DNA of 64,000 nt from IMG/VR virus record IMGVR_UViG_3300006922_000005, one strand, 5' to 3'. The position numbers and the translations under genes were made by a program. Shown in pieces: positions 6,001 to 59,462 of this stretch. The notes under the pieces were generated by a model. The model saw nothing but the letters and a program-made list of their open reading frames with translations, searched no databases and had not been told where the DNA came from. Every line of letters begins with the position of its first letter. Positions within the stretch are counted from its first letter, which is position 1. This DNA comes from a virus (Duplodnaviria > Caudoviricetes).

Positions 6001-9000
6001 CTGATCCACTGTATGTTCCGTCTATTACTGATGTTGCATCAAAACCTGTACTTAAACTTGAGTTTGTGTACATAAAGAATTCTGTAGTTCCATTACCACT
6101 AGTAACATCAATATAGTATGCTCCGTCTATTGTAGTAAAACCGTTTCCGTCAAGTCCTTCAATTACTACAACTGAACCATGTCTAAATCCGTGTGCAGAA
6201 CTTGTTGTAATTTTAGTTGCACTACCTACGTTAATACTAGCAATTTCAAATCTAGCACCTGTGATTTCATTTACTACATATTCTGTTGTGTCACTGTTTG
6301 TTGAGTATGCTGTTAATTCAATCCTTGAATCTTCAAAAGGCAAATAATCAAAGTCTTTAATTTTTATTTCTGTATTACCTGATTTGTTAACAGTACCGCC
6401 TACTGTATCTGCTTTAACAATCTGTGTATAATCTGGATCTGGTGAACCAGTTGCTTGTGCGTTAACATGTCTAAAGAATGTTACACCACTTTGTAAGTTT
6501 TCGTTTGGATCACTACCTTCTGCTTTTAAACCAATACGTCCATAACAACTTGAACCGTTAAGTGATCTAATTTGTCCACCGTTTCTTGCCCAATAAGATG
6601 TATCACAATAATAAGTGAATACAGATACTGCTTCAATTAGTCCTGCGTTAGTTGCAATTAATCCAAATCCGTCTGAGTTGATTTGTGTATAGTCATTACA
6701 AGTCATGGACTTGTTACCAGCAGTTTCTAATCTAATTTCAGTTGTTTGTGGAATGTTACCTGTTGAGTTAGATGTTGTTCTTGCTATAATTGTTGTTGTA
6801 CTTGCAAGTGTAAGAGTTTGTTTAAATGTACCTGCACCTAGTCCGTCATCAACTGGTGCTGTTGCTCCAACTACTCTATGTGTAAATTTTTCAAAGTCAC
6901 TTACACCAGTTACAAAGTTTCTTGAATCTTGGTATAAGAATGTTGTTGGTAATTGTATTTCTCTTGTTAAACCTTGTAGTGTAATAGTAGATCCACTTGC
7001 AGGGTTATCAACTACTGTACCATATTGTACACCAGCATTACCGTCAACATATTGACCACCACCACCTTGTCCTGAGAAACTTGAAACTGTTTGTACATAA
7101 GGTGATTTAGTTAAAATTTGTCCTTCTGGATCAAGTACGTTAATAAAACCTTGATGTCTACGTAAACTTAAATTACGTAGTATTGTAGCATTGTTCATTA
7201 AGAACAAATCCATATGTTGGTTTAGTTTCTTAAGTTCAATTACTGTATTGTTATTAATTGTTGCACCAAGTGTTGTAGCCGTTGTTGTATTGATGTCAGA
7301 GTAAATATTACCTCTCCATCTACTAGTATCTCCAACAGCATCTGGATCACTTGCCCAATCTTTAACGTAATATGTTACAGAGTTACTAACAAAGTATAAA
7401 CCGTTAACTGGAGGATAAGCAACATCTTTGATTGTAATTTGATTACTACCAATTTGGTTAACTGAACCACTAAATGTATCTGCACGTGAATACTGTGAGT
7501 CATAGTGATTTCTAAATCTTGATTCTTTTGGAAGTGCTGTTCCGTTATATCTTAATAAGTCACCTTTTTCATATGTTAAGTCGATTGCACGTGAAGGAGG
7601 TCTAACGCCAACTAATGGTTGTATAATTGTACGTCTAAACTCATCACCTTTAAGTGAAACATTTTCTGGCAATACAATTGGAAAGTATTCTTCGTAAAGT
7701 CCTGACTCAACAAAAATTGTAATTTCAGGTAATGGAATATTTGTTTCTCTACCTTCACCGCCTGTTTTTGTTGGAGCAACACCTGTACCGTTTGTAATCA
7801 CATTGGTAATAATGTCCATCAATGTACCAATAGTAGTAGACGCTCCTGATTCTGCAATAATTGCCGCATCAATAAATTGTTCAAATCCACTTTGATTACT
7901 AAATGTACCTTCAAATGTTGGTAATGATCCAAGTCCTGAATTAATAACAGTTGTAATACTGTTCATTAAGTTGTTTACTTTTGTACTTGCCGCACCTTCA
8001 CCGTTGTTTGAACTTGTGTATTGTGTATATGTTGATTGTTTACTACTTGTATATGACAAGTTTTGTAAAACAAAGTTTCTTACTAGGTCTTTAGCAAAGT
8101 CTAGTGCATCAACAGTTTGTGCTTGTTGCCCAGCAACTTGACTTGTTGCACCGTCCCAATAGTTTTGTGCGTTATCTCTTGATTTAGTGTTACCACCAAA
8201 TTTTAAATCAAATGCAACGCCTTCTAAAATTAATTTTGTATCACGTCTACATTTAGATTCATTGTATGTAAAGCCTGTCCAAATACCTACATTGTTTGTA
8301 ATTTGATCATTAATATATGCAATAGTTTCTTCAGCAACAAAATCTAAGTTTTGTGTAATTAAATCATGTGCATAAGGATTTCTAGTATTGCTTGGAGCAA
8401 CATATGCAGTGTTTGTTAAAACATTTGTTGTAATTAAATTTTTAGCAAAGTTAATTGCCGCTACTGTTTCACTTTGTTGTCCTGCAACTCTTGATGTAGC
8501 ACCATCCCAATAACTTAATGCCGCATCAACAGTTTTTGAATTACCTACATAAGTTAAATCAAAACTTACAGCATCAATAATTAATCCTAAGTCTCTAAAA
8601 CACTTGTCTCTATTAAATGTAAATGTATCTGCAAAATCATCTGTGTTGTCGCCATCGTTGATTTCGTTTTCAATAAATGCAAGAGTTTCTTCTTGAATAA
8701 ATCTTCTGTTGTCAACAAGTAATTTATTAGCCAGTACGTTTGTTAAATCTTCAGTACCGTCTGCCGCTAGATTAACTGTGTATGGTCCAGGTTTCTTAGA
8801 AGGAACTTTCCAATAAACATCTCCTGTAAATAGTCCTTGATCTTTAAGAACTATATCACCTTTTATAATACGTTCTGCATAAAAACATGCTTCACGTACA
8901 GAGTTAAATGCATATGATTGAGCACGACCAATTTGATTTTCATCAGCACCTGCCGCTTTCATCTGTGCTTCTGTTCTACCTGACTTACTTACAAAAATAT

Positions 9001-21698: not shown

Positions 21699-21788
21699 TG
21701 GCGGAAGGACTGGGATTCGAACCCAGGGAAGAGTTACCCCTTCGTCGGTTTAGTAAACCGGTGCTTTAAGCCGCTCAGCCATCCTTCC
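21699..21788 (-). tRNA. tRNA-Ser (anticodon ACT)
   Basis: GGAAGGA/TCCTTCC acceptor, long variable arm, GTTCGAATC T-loop, G73, encoded CCA; anticodon loop TTACTAA. Confidence 0.9.
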
Positions 21789-34702: not shown

Positions 34703-35132
34703 CATTTGTAGCATCTACTAATTCTTGTGTAGAAAACTTAAACCTATCTTTTTCAGGTAATAGTGCTGGTGTTAGAGCATGTTCTCGATCAAGATATTTG
34801 TATTCCATTTTAACGGGGTTGTAGTATTCTTCAACCCACTCAAACACTGTACGTGGATCAAATGCTCCACAAGTATAAACATCTAATTGTATTAATGCAG
34901 GATCTGTTTCATCCCAACTATGTAATACAATGTGACTGGTTTCTATAATTGCGGCAACTGTTAATCCTCGGTTGCCTTCCATTTCAACATACTTGGCAAA
35001 AGGACCCATAAGCACTTTCATGCCTATGCGATCAATCAGAGTTTGTATTTGATTACTTGCTGTGTTTTCGTTTGTAGGCGGATTAAGTACTTCCGCTCTT
35101 ATTATCACATGCTTATGCACGAGTGGTTTCAC
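34683..35132 (-). CDS. speD: S-adenosylmethionine decarboxylase proenzyme
   Basis: IIETSHIVLHSW.E, LDVYTCG; GTG start with TAAGTA-N5. Confidence 0.85.
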   Translation of the reverse strand: MKPLVHKHVIIRAEVLNPPTNENTASNQIQTLIDRIGMKVLMGPFAKYVEMEGNRGLTVAAIIETSHIVLHSWDETDPALIQLDVYTCGAFDPRTVFEWVEEYYNPVKMEYKYLDREHALTPALLPEKDRFKFSTQELVDATNAILQSS

Positions 35133-35154
35133 TCGACTACTTATATTTGTTAGT

Positions 35155-35229
35155 TGGTAGTCCCTAGGAGAATCGAACTCCTCTTTGCGAGATGAAAACC
35201 CGCTGTCCTAACCGATAGACGAAGGGACC
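35155..35229 (-). tRNA. tRNA-Glu (TTC)
   Basis: Cloverleaf, anticodon loop TTTTCAT, CCA. Confidence 0.92.
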
Positions 35230-35249
35230 TTAATTTTTTAATTATTAAC

Positions 35250-35278
35250 AGTATAGCACCAAAGCACTATACTGTCAA
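35250..35278 (-). promoter_or_regulatory. Sigma70-type promoter for tRNA-Glu
   Basis: TTGACA-17-TATACT. Confidence 0.75.
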
Positions 35279-35799
35279 CCTTTTCTAACCTCATCAATGT
35301 GTATAGGTGTAAAATTAATTTGTTCTACACAAACACACTTGTAAGGACCATCTGGACTAGGATTGCTATGTATATGTCCATGAGCGTTTATCCCAGGTCC
35401 GTTATCACCCCATCTATGTCTTTCTTCAAGAGTACTTGCATGTAATGGAGTATGAGTACAAATAACACCAGGTAACTCAATCCACAACTGTATATCCTTA
35501 AAGAACGGAGCAACATGTTTTACATTGTCATGGTTTCCAAGAACAAGTCTTTTCTTACCAGGTAACTTTGCAAAGTTTGCTTCTAACCATTCTACTTTGT
35601 TTTCACCAAACAATACATCACCTAAGTGTATAACTGTGTCCTGAGGCTTAACAGTATTTGTCCAGTTATCTAACATTGTTTGGTTCATTTCATCTACGTT
35701 AGAAAAAGGTCTGATAGATCTACCACCTTGTGTAAATTCAAGGATCTTACTGTGATTGAAATGTGTATCACTTATTAACCATATATCTTTTGCCATCAT
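35275..35799 (-). CDS. Calcineurin-like metallophosphoesterase
   Basis: SDTH, HLGD, GNHD, H.P, HGHIH motifs. Confidence 0.88.
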   Translation of the reverse strand: MMAKDIWLISDTHFNHSKILEFTQGGRSIRPFSNVDEMNQTMLDNWTNTVKPQDTVIHLGDVLFGENKVEWLEANFAKLPGKKRLVLGNHDNVKHVAPFFKDIQLWIELPGVICTHTPLHASTLEERHRWGDNGPGINAHGHIHSNPSPDGPYKCVCVEQINFTPIHIDEVRKG

Positions 35800-35822
35800 A
35801 TTCTCCTAACTAACTTATATAC

Positions 35823-35851
35823 ATTATAACATCGGTAATACCAGATGTCAA
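35823..35851 (-). promoter_or_regulatory. Consensus sigma70 promoter for the phosphoesterase
   Basis: TTGACA-17-TATAAT. Confidence 0.85.
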
Positions 35852-35859
35852 CCAAAAAT

Positions 35860-35933
35860 TGGAGTGGACGACAGGAATCGAACCTGTATACATGGATTTG
35901 CAATCCACTGCGTAACCATTCCGCCACGCCCAC
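35860..35933 (-). tRNA. tRNA-Cys (GCA)
   Basis: Anticodon loop TTGCAAA, U73, CCA. Confidence 0.94.
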
Positions 35934-35937
35934 AAAT

Positions 35938-36011
35938 TGGCATAGGTGGAGGGAATCGAACCCCCATTAACTGGTTTGGAATCAGTTGTGTTACCATTAC
36001 ACCACACCCAT
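35938..36011 (-). tRNA. tRNA-Trp (CCA)
   Basis: A1-U72, G73, anticodon loop TTCCAAA, CCA. Confidence 0.9.
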
Positions 36012-36048
36012 AAAAAAACCCCCGTAAGCATTATAACTCCGGGGGTCT
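36012..36048 (-). terminator. Intrinsic terminator (attenuator) abutting the 5' end of tRNA-Trp
   Basis: AGACCCCCG...CGGGGGT followed by a U-tract. Confidence 0.85.
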
Positions 36049-36071
36049 AAAATTCATTGCTGAACAACTGC

Positions 36072-36137
36072 CTACAAGACACTCCCGGGTGGTTCACAAC
36101 CACACCATTCATAATTATTTGTATACTTCGTATTCAT
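36072..36137 (-). CDS. Putative attenuator leader peptide MNTKYTNNYEWCGCEPPGSVL
   Basis: AAGGA SD, ATG 36137, TAG 36074-36072; lies between promoter and terminator; W/C codons match downstream tRNAs. Confidence 0.7.
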   Translation of the reverse strand: MNTKYTNNYEWCGCEPPGSVL

Positions 36138-36164
36138 TGTTCGCTTTCCTTATTAACTTTTTAC

Positions 36165-36193
36165 AGTATATTATCTTTTTGTCGTATTGTCAA
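36165..36193 (-). promoter_or_regulatory. Sigma70 promoter of leader-tRNA-Trp-tRNA-Cys unit
   Basis: TTGACA-17-TATACT. Confidence 0.8.
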
Positions 36194-36431
36194 CCACAAA
36201 TGCTTTAATTTTGTTAAAATTATTTGTAGTTTGTTCTTTACCTTCTTGCCAACTATTTTTTTGGTATTCTACTATATCTGCCCATTCGCTGATTACCCAG
36301 TTATTTATTTTTTCAACAATAACAGGTTTCTTCTTAGGTGTTAATGTTTCATCAGCACCTGCTGTTGTAACAAGAAGTACAAATAATATTGTTATACTTG
36401 CTACGATTGTTAATAGTGTCTTAGTTGTCAT
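36171..36431 (-). CDS. Exported/membrane-anchored hypothetical protein
   Basis: N-terminal hydrophobic signal; AAGGA SD. Confidence 0.6.
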   Translation of the reverse strand: MTTKTLLTIVASITILFVLLVTTAGADETLTPKKKPVIVEKINNWVISEWADIVEYQKNSWQEGKEQTTNNFNKIKAFVVDNTTKR

Positions 36432-36451
36432 ATATTCCTTTTGTTAGTTTT

Positions 36452-36528
36452 TGGCCTGCTCGGGAGGACTCGAACCTCCGACCTTTGGTTCCGCAAACCA
36501 ATGTTCTATCCGGCTGAACTACGAGCAG
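36452..36528 (-). tRNA. tRNA-Arg (anticodon GCG)
   Basis: CTGCTCG/CGAGCAG acceptor, TTGGT/ACCAA stem, loop TTGCGGA, CCA. Confidence 0.92.
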
Positions 36529-36550
36529 TTTTTGTTTCATATATAACTTA

Positions 36551-36579
36551 ACTATATATGGTAAAACCGTTTTTGTCAA
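36551..36579 (-). promoter_or_regulatory. Sigma70 promoter for tRNA-Arg(GCG)
   Basis: TTGACA-17-TATAGT. Confidence 0.75.
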
Positions 36580-36597
36580 CCAGATTTTTAATCCAAT

Positions 36598-36792
36598 TTA
36601 ATATGTACAAGTAAGTTCAGCACCTGGATTAACATGACGTTCAACTTCGTCAATCAAACTCTTTTCATCTGAATCGCTTGGTGCTTGGGGATTTTTATTT
36701 TGGGTTACTGTTGGTTTAGCATTACAGTTGTCCAATTTGAATGTGCAAGATATAAGGAATATCGCAATGAATATCAGCAGTGTGTAACGCAT
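36598..36792 (-). CDS. Small putative lipoprotein
   Basis: MRYTLLIFIAIFLISC lipobox. Confidence 0.55.
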   Translation of the reverse strand: MRYTLLIFIAIFLISCTFKLDNCNAKPTVTQNKNPQAPSDSDEKSLIDEVERHVNPGAELTCTY

Positions 36793-59028: not shown

Positions 59029-59154
59029 CTTTTAAATATACTGGTTTTATATGTTATGTCGCCTACGGCGTGGATAGAGTCCGTTCTATACTGTGTTCTT
59101 TTTGTTATAGTTAAAGGTGCTTTTGTATATACACTATTTATATTGCTCTCTATA

Positions 59155-59420
59155 GTATGCAACTTTTCTGTTGCCAGGTAAGTTGCCAACCCCTACGTGC
59201 CTAAACTAGGCCGCTAATGCCATTTCTGGCGCATAATTGTCATTTGCAATTATAAAGTTTCTTCGCGATAACCGTGCTTAGATCCGGATAACTCCACTAA
59301 CTCTATTAACTACCAGTCGATCCTATTTCGACCCCATCATAAGCACACTCGGTAAATGTGTTTATGGTGGAGTCGCCCGGTACCGCCCCGGGGTCCTGAA
59401 TAGCGTTTGAATTGCTTCAA
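59155..59420 (-). ncRNA. ssrA: Circularly permuted two-piece tmRNA; tag ANDNYAPEMALAA
   Basis: Acceptor piece ending CGACTCCACCA (59365), short intervening hairpin, GGGGTCGAAATAGGATCGAC (from 59335), G3-U70, tag 59247..59206; ends approximate. Confidence 0.93.
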
Positions 59421-59433
59421 CGTTACATATATA

Positions 59434-59462
59434 GTTATACTATCATTTTACCAAAAAGTCAA
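59434..59462 (-). promoter_or_regulatory. Sigma70-type promoter for ssrA
   Basis: TTGACT-17-TATAAC. Confidence 0.65.

Follow-up and report, generated by a model that had tools for sequence, protein, structure and literature searches.

Sequence and Folding Analysis of a Putative Leader-Peptide Attenuator Upstream of tRNA-Trp-Led tRNA Operons in Marine Phages

Introduction

In the trpL leader of enterobacteria, as in hisL, pheL, leuL and thrL, a promoter-proximal short open reading frame (ORF) with control codons is followed by an intrinsic terminator, the antiterminator shares a strand with this terminator, the stop codon lies where a ribosome terminating on it covers the antiterminator, and the control codon (UGG in trpL) names the product. 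The same traits are found in an element described here from a 64,000-nucleotide (nt) stretch of viral DNA, referred to throughout as the window (IMG/VR record IMGVR_UViG_3300006922_000005; Duplodnaviria, Caudoviricetes), where it lies on the minus strand upstream of genes for tRNA-Trp(CCA) and tRNA-Cys(GCA). Judging from its sequence and modelled folding, we consider it likely that the element is a ribosome-mediated (leader-peptide) transcription attenuator which controls a tRNA operon led by tRNA-Trp. It differs from the trpL type in that it would regulate tRNAs instead of biosynthetic enzymes, with a product that would act directly on the sensor, in that its leader usually carries a single Trp codon where trpL-type leaders have a tandem pair or run, in that no 1:2 protector or pause hairpin was found, and in being borne by phages without any sequence relation to the enterobacterial leaders (no Rfam match).

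Two other described systems come close to the phage element. The pheST attenuator of E. coli also has a leader peptide with cognate codons that controls a gene of the translation apparatus; its output is phenylalanyl-tRNA synthetase, whereas the output here would be the tRNA itself. T-box riboswitches are likewise terminator/antiterminator switches that report tRNA charging and control translation-related genes; however, they bind uncharged tRNA directly and have no leader ORF, while the phage leader is far shorter and gave no T-box match. Attenuator-like leaders of the E. coli tRNA-Phe genes pheU and pheV were considered as a possible precedent and discarded, as pheV, located 105 nt downstream of yqgA, has an ordinary promoter and lacks a leader ORF. 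Attenuation control was found described only for amino-acid and synthetase genes, and full-text literature searches returned no description of a leader-peptide attenuator of tRNA genes, in agreement with an initial annotation of this DNA, which knew of no phage attenuator whose output is the sensed tRNAs.

Discussions of phage tRNA genes usually treat them as passive aids to codon usage or as spares against host defences that cut tRNAs, and to our knowledge almost nothing has been described on the control of their expression. If the proposed attenuator is real, it would add tRNA genes to the amino-acid and synthetase genes covered by textbook attenuation, as a known mechanism with a new target class and a closed feedback loop.

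Organization of the Leader Locus

The locus runs on the minus strand from a near-consensus promoter to a pair of tRNA genes, and consists of the following features:

36193-36165, minus strand: sigma-70-type promoter TTGACA-17-TATACT (TTGACA at 36193-36188, TATACT at 36170-36165), matching 11 of 12 consensus positions
36151-36147, minus strand: Shine-Dalgarno (SD) sequence AAGGA, 9 nt upstream of the ATG
36137-36072, minus strand: leader ORF MNTKYTNNYEWCGCEPPGSVL, 21 codons plus TAG (ATG at 36137, TAG at 36074-36072)
36107-36096, minus strand: proposed sensor codons TGG-TGT-GGT-TGT (Trp, Cys, Gly, Cys)
36087-36077, minus strand: 5′ strand of the antiterminator base helix, CGGGAGUGUCU, ending 2 nt upstream of the stop codon
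36087-36040, minus strand: whole antiterminator hairpin, enclosing the stop codon (36074-36072), -18.3 kcal/mol
36048-36012, minus strand: intrinsic terminator, with 5′ arm 36045-36036, 3′ arm 36029-36019 and U7 at 36018-36012
36011-35938, minus strand: tRNA-Trp(CCA) with encoded CCA, called by ARAGORN (Rfam tRNA, 62.2 bits)
35933-35860, minus strand: tRNA-Cys(GCA), 4 nt beyond tRNA-Trp, called by ARAGORN (Rfam tRNA, 64.1 bits)

The promoter, SD, leader, terminator, tRNA-Trp and tRNA-Cys were all present where the initial annotation had placed them. The leader holds one Trp codon (TGG, 36107-36105) and two Cys codons (TGT, 36104-36102 and 36098-36096), and the distance from the start of the Trp codon to the first paired base of the antiterminator is 20 nt, not the roughly 15 nt given previously. 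The terminator hairpin (36045-36019) has a folding energy of -15.2 kcal/mol, and tRNA-Trp begins at the very next base after the U-tract. The promoter overlaps the 3′ end of an upstream ORF of 86 aa.

Distribution of the Leader in Viral Sequences

The IMG/VR data were scanned five times, with three scans keyed on pieces of tRNA-Trp, one on a looser tRNA pattern and one on the leader, and metagenomes were scanned with a pattern limited to G-run, stop region and terminator 5′ arm, which is blind to both the Trp codon and the tRNA. A total of 187 loci with a leader were obtained from the tRNA-Trp-keyed, leader-keyed and metagenome scans, representing 80 distinct leader-plus-array combinations. 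The relatives have very different sequences and an identical layout, which comprises a near-consensus sigma-70 promoter, an SD, an ORF of 15-24 codons, a long hairpin, a terminator and a tRNA array. A TTGAC(A)-17/18-TATAnT promoter occupies the equivalent position in all of them, and their terminators consist of hairpins of -11 to -18 kcal/mol with U6-7 directly upstream of the tRNA. The leader peptides of the relatives include MSKTIRTQLCWPLRGMS, MSQTNTTYITCWPPSGGMS, IKTNTICIICWPPKGGMS (GTG start), MSRIRTTYFCWCTPQGRALS, MSYNRTAYKPDWCSRGEGMF and MTTMMKQIKQHCIRWFSEGRSVS.

The link between the Trp codon and tRNA-Trp is firm. The blind metagenome scan gave 113 matches, 100 of them with full context, and tRNA-Trp was the first tRNA in 97/100; an SD-preceded ORF in frame with the conserved stop was found in 90 matches, and every one of these contains a Trp codon (90/90), with Cys in 71/90 and Pro-Pro in 67/90. 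With the leader-keyed scan, tRNA-Trp was the first downstream tRNA in every phage-like match, even where the tRNA-Trp sequence itself was divergent, and GC-rich chance matches had no tRNA. Among the loci retrieved, 70 of 104 distinct Trp-led arrays have a strong terminator abutting their first tRNA, compared with 1 of about 195 arrays led by other tRNAs.

The leader was unmatched among GenBank phage isolates. Cellular genomes yielded at least 120 matches, all of them chance among the matches listed and none with the extended motif, and the element is likely absent from bacteria. A search of Rfam at E-values up to 1 over 35000-36700 of the window returned only the tRNAs and one chance microRNA match, with no Trp_leader and no T-box, and three related loci searched at gathering thresholds gave tRNAs only. 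The locus is also present in metatranscriptome contigs, which, being contig sequences, are uninformative on 3′ ends and levels.

Several variations in the spacing and form of the tRNA genes were recorded (L numbers denote loci or lineages of the family). A structured element of about 90 nt lies between the U-tract and tRNA-Trp in L132 (4044-4135), as well as in L100, L131, L148, L162, L165 and L329; it has a closing stem ACUACACUA...UAGUGUAGU, shifts the tRNA about 90 nt from the terminator and has no Rfam match. A GC-rich insert of 93 nt, also without Rfam match, separates tRNA-Trp from tRNA-Cys in L016 (4856-4948) and in most close relatives of the window (L007, L010 and others of the window type), where the window has a spacer of 4 nt. 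Some tRNA-Trp genes of the family measure 85-88 nt by ARAGORN instead of the usual 74 nt, the additional nucleotides lying in the D-arm and variable region; those of L289 and L292 are 88 nt long and lie about 50 nt beyond the terminator. In L064, a tRNA-Trp of the same sequence family (about 7319-7392) lies directly 3′ of a protein-coding gene without promoter, leader or terminator, showing that the attenuator can be absent.

Antiterminator and Terminator Structures

The segment 36087-36077 of the window pairs with AGACCCCCG (36048-36040) in a duplex of -14.5 kcal/mol, which is equalled by 1.8% of dinucleotide shuffles. The proposal that the segment before the stop codon complements the 5′ arm of the terminator thus stands, although the helix of the window is interrupted by a minority base, A at 36083 (GGG AGT), where the other 13 loci of the same leader type have G (GGG GGT). 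With G at this position, CCGGGGGU is a perfect 8-bp complement of ACCCCCGG, and the change from G to A weakens the antiterminator from -21.9 to -18.3 kcal/mol and its predicted occupancy from 0.99 to 0.78. This variant may be a natural polymorphism or an assembly error.

In 43/43 distinct leaders from viral contigs, the sequence that starts with the codon following Trp and extends to the terminator 5′ arm folds into one hairpin, with energies ranging from -12.9 to -23.4 kcal/mol (mean -19.9) and a mean z of -3.5 against dinucleotide shuffles. The base of the hairpin is a G-run paired with the C-run of the terminator, and its 5′ strand holds the final codons and the stop. Across 72 distinct leaders, the mean energies of the antiterminator and the terminator were -20.0 and -16.3 kcal/mol, respectively, the distance from the first base of UGG to the first paired base was 9-20 nt (median 12), and the stop codon was located within the hairpin in 72/72, beginning 11-13 nt inside the 5′ strand in 66/72. 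The strands that pair differ between lineages as follows:

Base pairing, window type: 5′ strand CCGGGGGU, 3′ strand ACCCCCGG
Base pairing, core group: 5′ strand AGGGGU, 3′ strand AGCCCCU
Base pairing, L048: 5′ strand GGGCUUU, 3′ strand AAAGCCC
Base pairing, L044: 5′ strand AGAGGG, 3′ strand CCCUCU
Base pairing, L079: 5′ strand GGCAGGAGUG, 3′ strand CACCCCUGCU
Inner helix, L135: 5′ strand UUGACGU, 3′ strand GACGUCAA
Inner helix, L140: 5′ strand GACAU, 3′ strand AUGUC

Swap and chimera tests across lineages were used in place of covariation within the core group. When the partners of the base helix were swapped among six lineages, the own partners summed to -84.5 kcal/mol against a mean of -66.4 kcal/mol, with 1.9% of 720 permutations equalling the native arrangement. 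For chimeras of hairpin halves from 14 lineages, the native halves gave -251.5 kcal/mol and the swapped ones -200 +/- 9.4 kcal/mol (0/20,000 permutations). Within the core group, pairs are kept at 82.6%, compared with 32-71% in slid controls.

Partition-function folds were computed for eleven lineages on nascent RNA lacking the 3′ arm of the terminator, with ribosome footprints masked. In the window, the 5′ arm is paired with the segment before the stop at a probability of 0.78 in ribosome-free RNA, 0.98 with the ribosome at the Trp or a Cys codon, and 0.00 with the ribosome at the stop codon. Pairing without a ribosome ranged between 0.5 and 0.99 in 10/11 lineages and was 0.13 in L048, and it stays high in most lineages with the footprint at the Trp codon or the codon preceding it. 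A footprint at the stop codon reduced it to 0.00-0.03 in 10/11 lineages, the exception being L039 (0.50) because its frame-shifted ORF ends further downstream. Folding both conformers, which the initial annotation had suggested as a check, gave the behaviour that the attenuation model calls for, the antiterminator being left formed by a ribosome at Trp/Cys and abolished by one at the stop in most lineages. The antiterminator and the terminator are mutually exclusive in these models. Full-length RNA at equilibrium favours the terminator in every case (probability 0.99 in the window), so the choice between the two would be kinetic, as in classical attenuators. The distances in the 72 leaders and the masked folds agree with the trp/his-type geometry recognized at the outset, and the modelled geometry fits trp-type attenuation.

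In most leaders of the core family (for example L011, 2498-2651), the stop codon is embedded in a TTGACA sequence (TCT TGA CAT) with a TATTTT- or TATATT-like hexamer 18 nt downstream, and within the antiterminator the two have the look of a promoter or of a sigma-dependent pause site. The promoter interpretation was rejected, as the transcript would start just before the terminator hairpin, without the 5′ strand of the antiterminator.

Leader Codons and the tRNA Arrays

The arrays behind tRNA-Trp vary, including Trp alone, Trp-Cys, Trp-Pro-Cys, Trp-Pro-Ser(UGA)-Cys, Trp-Tyr-Cys and others. For the 80 distinct combinations of leader and array, the sensor region was taken as codon 2 through the second codon after Trp, and the presence of a codon in it was compared with the presence of the cognate tRNA downstream:

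Cys codon and tRNA-Cys: both 46, codon only 21, tRNA only 1, neither 12 (Fisher p 5e-5, odds ratio 26)
Pro codon and tRNA-Pro: both 28, codon only 44, tRNA only 0, neither 8 (Fisher p 0.026)
Gly codon and tRNA-Gly: both 2, codon only 3, tRNA only 1, neither 74 (Fisher p 0.009)
Ser codon and tRNA-Ser: both 8, codon only 33, tRNA only 0, neither 39 (Fisher p 0.003)

Altogether, 102 of 118 non-Trp tRNAs are matched by amino acid in the sensor region, against 84.3 +/- 3.0 under permutation (0/5000). Since the loci are related, simple association tests of this kind overstate the case. The comparison of leader codons with tRNAs in related phages nevertheless favours what the initial annotation had predicted for it, with Trp essentially invariant and the Cys codon tending to accompany tRNA-Cys.

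Individual loci illustrate the association. L289 and L292 have three differences in about 190 nt of promoter and leader, one of which turns the codon before Trp from TGT (Cys) in L289 to GGT (Gly) in L292; their third tRNA is Cys(GCA) and Gly(UCC), respectively, with identical tRNA-Trp and tRNA-Pro, with the caveat that GGT is not the preferred codon of the UCC anticodon. L291 has GGT and no Cys codon, and correspondingly tRNA-Gly and no tRNA-Cys. The leader of L319 (MFKTTTMYYRWC...), with a YY pair, precedes Trp, Tyr and Cys tRNAs, and all four leaders with W-P-S(TCA) have tRNA-Ser(UGA) (4/4). Behind the leader of L079 (MTTMMKQIKQHCIRW...) lie Trp, Ile, Lys, Gln, Cys and Met tRNAs.

Matching of several codons to the tRNA set is probable but unproven. 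A stronger form, in which the leader would be a modular sensor that co-evolves with the operon, each tRNA being cognate-coded upstream of the antiterminator and each codon being swapped along with its tRNA gene, is put forward tentatively and in our judgement falls somewhat short of an even chance. If it holds, the supply of all tRNAs in the array would be under self-tuning feedback through the leader.

Probable Translation of the Leader ORF

Several indirect signs suggest that the leader is translated. The SD is conserved at a fixed spacing, with AAGGAA kept in an alignment of 20 variants, the start codon exchanges between ATG and GTG, and the stop exchanges among TGA, TAA and TAG at one position, with UGA in most leaders. 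Length differences between Trp and the G-run are mostly multiples of three, variability peaks at the third codon position (entropy 0.40/0.55/0.69 for the three positions), and Pro at codons 13-14 is retained through CCA, CCT and CCG. In L031 and L039-42 the frame is shifted relative to the conserved GGGGUAUGUYUUGA, so that the C-terminal peptide is altered and the RNA motif unchanged, as would be expected of an ORF under codon constraint in its 5′ part and RNA-level constraint in its 3′ part.

The position of the Trp codon calls for a comparison with TnaC, which senses free Trp and is characterized by W12, D16 and P24 before the stop, and by Rho-dependent termination. In such a scheme, Trp bound in the exit tunnel would block release at the stop codon and the stalled ribosome would set the switch. 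The leader shares Trp at codon 12, the position of the essential Trp of TnaC, in 35/43 distinct ORFs, and a UGA stop in most cases. However, equivalents of Asp16 and Pro24 are absent, the spacing from Trp to the stop varies from 7 to 13 codons, the stop can also be TAA or TAG, and the terminator is intrinsic and not Rho-dependent. As a ribosome at the stop favours termination, high free Trp would lead to less tRNA-Trp, for which there is no evident use, and we regard a TnaC-like sensor as very improbable.

The frame-shifted lineages bear on another explanation, namely that promoter, ORF and terminator form an unregulated gene for a micropeptide or small RNA, with the tRNAs being made by constitutive leakage or from another promoter and the complementarity being incidental. 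The leader peptide is conserved, termination would turn the leader into a stable RNA of about 150 nt, and attenuator RNAs and peptides can act in trans, as is reported for rnTrpL and peTrpL of Sinorhizobium (PMC7298713). A TATAAT sequence in the terminator loop of the window leader type (36035-36030) could furthermore be taken for a promoter of the tRNAs; this candidate was rejected, given its poor -35 and its restriction to a single lineage. The U-tract and the tRNA lie too close together to accommodate a promoter between them, and in the same phage other tRNAs carry promoters immediately upstream. An incidental complementarity is hard to reconcile with C-terminal residues that are lost on frame shift while the nucleotides are kept (L031, L039), with a stop codon that lies inside the hairpin in all 72 leaders and with hairpin halves that co-vary between lineages, which leaves a small-gene explanation with a slim chance.

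Proposed Mechanism of Attenuation

Sequence and computation establish the parts and how they are conserved, the two structures that exclude each other, the geometry, and the link between the Trp codon and tRNA-Trp. On this basis the working of the attenuator can be sketched as follows. Host RNA polymerase would start at the sigma-70 promoter and transcribe a leader of about 150 nt, on which a ribosome would load at the SD and translate the short ORF. With fast decoding, the ribosome would reach the stop codon, 11-13 nt inside the 5′ strand of the hairpin, and hold this strand open, so the terminator arms would pair and transcription would end at the U-tract, one base before tRNA-Trp. With a ribosome waiting at UGG (or at a neighbouring Cys codon), the hairpin 9-20 nt downstream would form and sequester the 5′ arm of the terminator, and the polymerase would then read into tRNA-Trp and tRNA-Cys and, in relatives, into Pro, Ser and other tRNAs. 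RNase P would remove the leader from the tRNA transcript, and the tRNAs produced would relieve the stall, which amounts to negative feedback on tRNA supply.

We infer translation of the ORF, a signal in the form of a ribosome stalled at UGG, and efficient termination. On these grounds the phage probably makes tRNA-Trp and tRNA-Cys only when ribosomes run short of them. The shortage of charged tRNA that the initial annotation named as the signal is likewise inferred, and a trigger by anticodon nuclease is pure speculation. If the mechanism is true, it would constitute direct feedback on decoding capacity, with an output tRNA that decodes its own control codon, by which the phage would gauge the state of the host translation machinery and dose its own tRNAs accordingly; the leader would also offer a compact natural sensor of tRNA availability, amenable to simple reporters.

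A number of observations weigh against this attenuator. Covariation of pairs in the core group is not above shuffles (82.6% vs 82.5% paired), so the covariation evidence comes from between lineages, and RNAalifold on MAFFT alignments recovers only the terminator, or GGG:CCC pairs, its yield being limited because the lineages differ in spacer architecture. No 1:2 protector (anti-antiterminator) hairpin and no conserved upstream partner of the G-run were found in the leaders, which means that an untranslated leader would read through instead of terminating. In several lineages the antiterminator begins 9-12 nt past the first base of UGG, which is tight for UGG in the A site, and most leaders have a single Trp codon, where classical attenuators use tandem or multiple control codons; a second Trp codon arises only through T+GGGG in some leaders, and L319 has three.

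On the codon side, the Trp part of the proposed Trp/Cys sensing is essentially invariant (90/90, 97/100) and the Cys part is weaker, with many leaders keeping Cys and Pro codons though tRNA-Trp alone is downstream, and L329 lacking a Cys codon despite its tRNA-Cys. A tree from which the sensor codons were excluded gave 6-7 independent pairs that differ in the Cys codon, of which about 4 were concordant, about 0 discordant and about 2 unchanged (median p 0.125); this kinship-controlled association has the right direction, is underpowered and can be called suggestive.

Lastly, the N-terminal M-x-K-T-N-T and the C-W-P-P core of the leader are conserved as amino acids, which a plain hungry-codon sensor does not need and which hints at a role of the nascent chain. 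The same switch could then be set by an arrest peptide, in which the nascent chain (x-I-x-C-W-P-P) slows the ribosome and the signal is EF-P or overall translation capacity instead of tRNA-Trp charging. The K-T-N-T and C-W-P-P residues persist across synonymous codons, PP is present in 67/90 leaders, and in E. coli the WPPP of FxxYxIWPPP is established as a strong arrest sequence, which shares with the phage leaders a Trp-Pro-Pro core after hydrophobic or aromatic residues (PMC11669330). That motif, however, has W with three Pro and F, Y and I at -6, -3 and -1, whereas the phage leaders have at most W-P-P, with Cys at -1 and a different upstream register, so that both the third Pro and the F/Y/I register are absent; 23/90 leaders have no PP at all (WPL, WPS, WC and the W-C-G-C order of the window). 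Moreover, Pro codons in the A site would put the edge of the ribosome over part of the base helix, favouring termination and not read-through, and an arrest peptide leaves unexplained both the rule that tRNA-Trp comes first and the tracking of Cys, Gly, Ser and Tyr codons. We therefore hold an arrest peptide to be unlikely and prefer stalling at the control codons, as in the attenuator sketched above.

Phage Context and Neighbouring Features

The gene content of the window includes curli csgG/csgF-like genes, speD, 2OG-Fe(II) oxygenases and a bilin reductase, the latter with 75% DNA identity to Pelagibacter phage Mosig, and the same gene set has been reported for pelagimyophages (PMC7029224). 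The carrier phages resemble those of SAR11, the most numerous bacteria of the sea. The attenuator family was found in uncultured marine phage contigs and is abundant in marine metagenomes, and the nearest viral record has 98-99% identity to the window over the attenuator region.

Further features of the window in and around the leader unit are given below:

36103-36089, minus strand: small hairpin GUGGUU/AACCAC over the Cys-Gly-Cys-Glu-Pro codons
35851-35823, minus strand: next promoter, TTGACA-17-TATAAT, matching 12 of 12 positions
35229-35155, minus strand: tRNA-Glu(TTC), with its own promoter at 35278-35250

The small hairpin occurs only in the window leader type, other lineages being without it, and it neither competes nor overlaps with the antiterminator. 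The perfect promoter at 35851-35823 is the downstream boundary of the putative attenuated unit. The tRNA-Glu(TTC), which had been listed as lying further on, is not part of the unit, as this promoter, a metallophosphoesterase gene and the promoter at 35278-35250 intervene between tRNA-Cys and tRNA-Glu. Near-consensus promoters are located about 21-23 nt upstream of both tRNA-Arg(GCG) and tRNA-Glu in the window, without a leader, and the long leader is therefore special to the Trp-Cys pair. Elsewhere in the window, ARAGORN called an asterisk-flagged tmRNA gene at 59115-59458 on the minus strand, with the tag peptide ANDNYAPEMALAA, and a tRNA-Ser with the rare anticodon ACU (A34) is located at 21699-21788, also on the minus strand.

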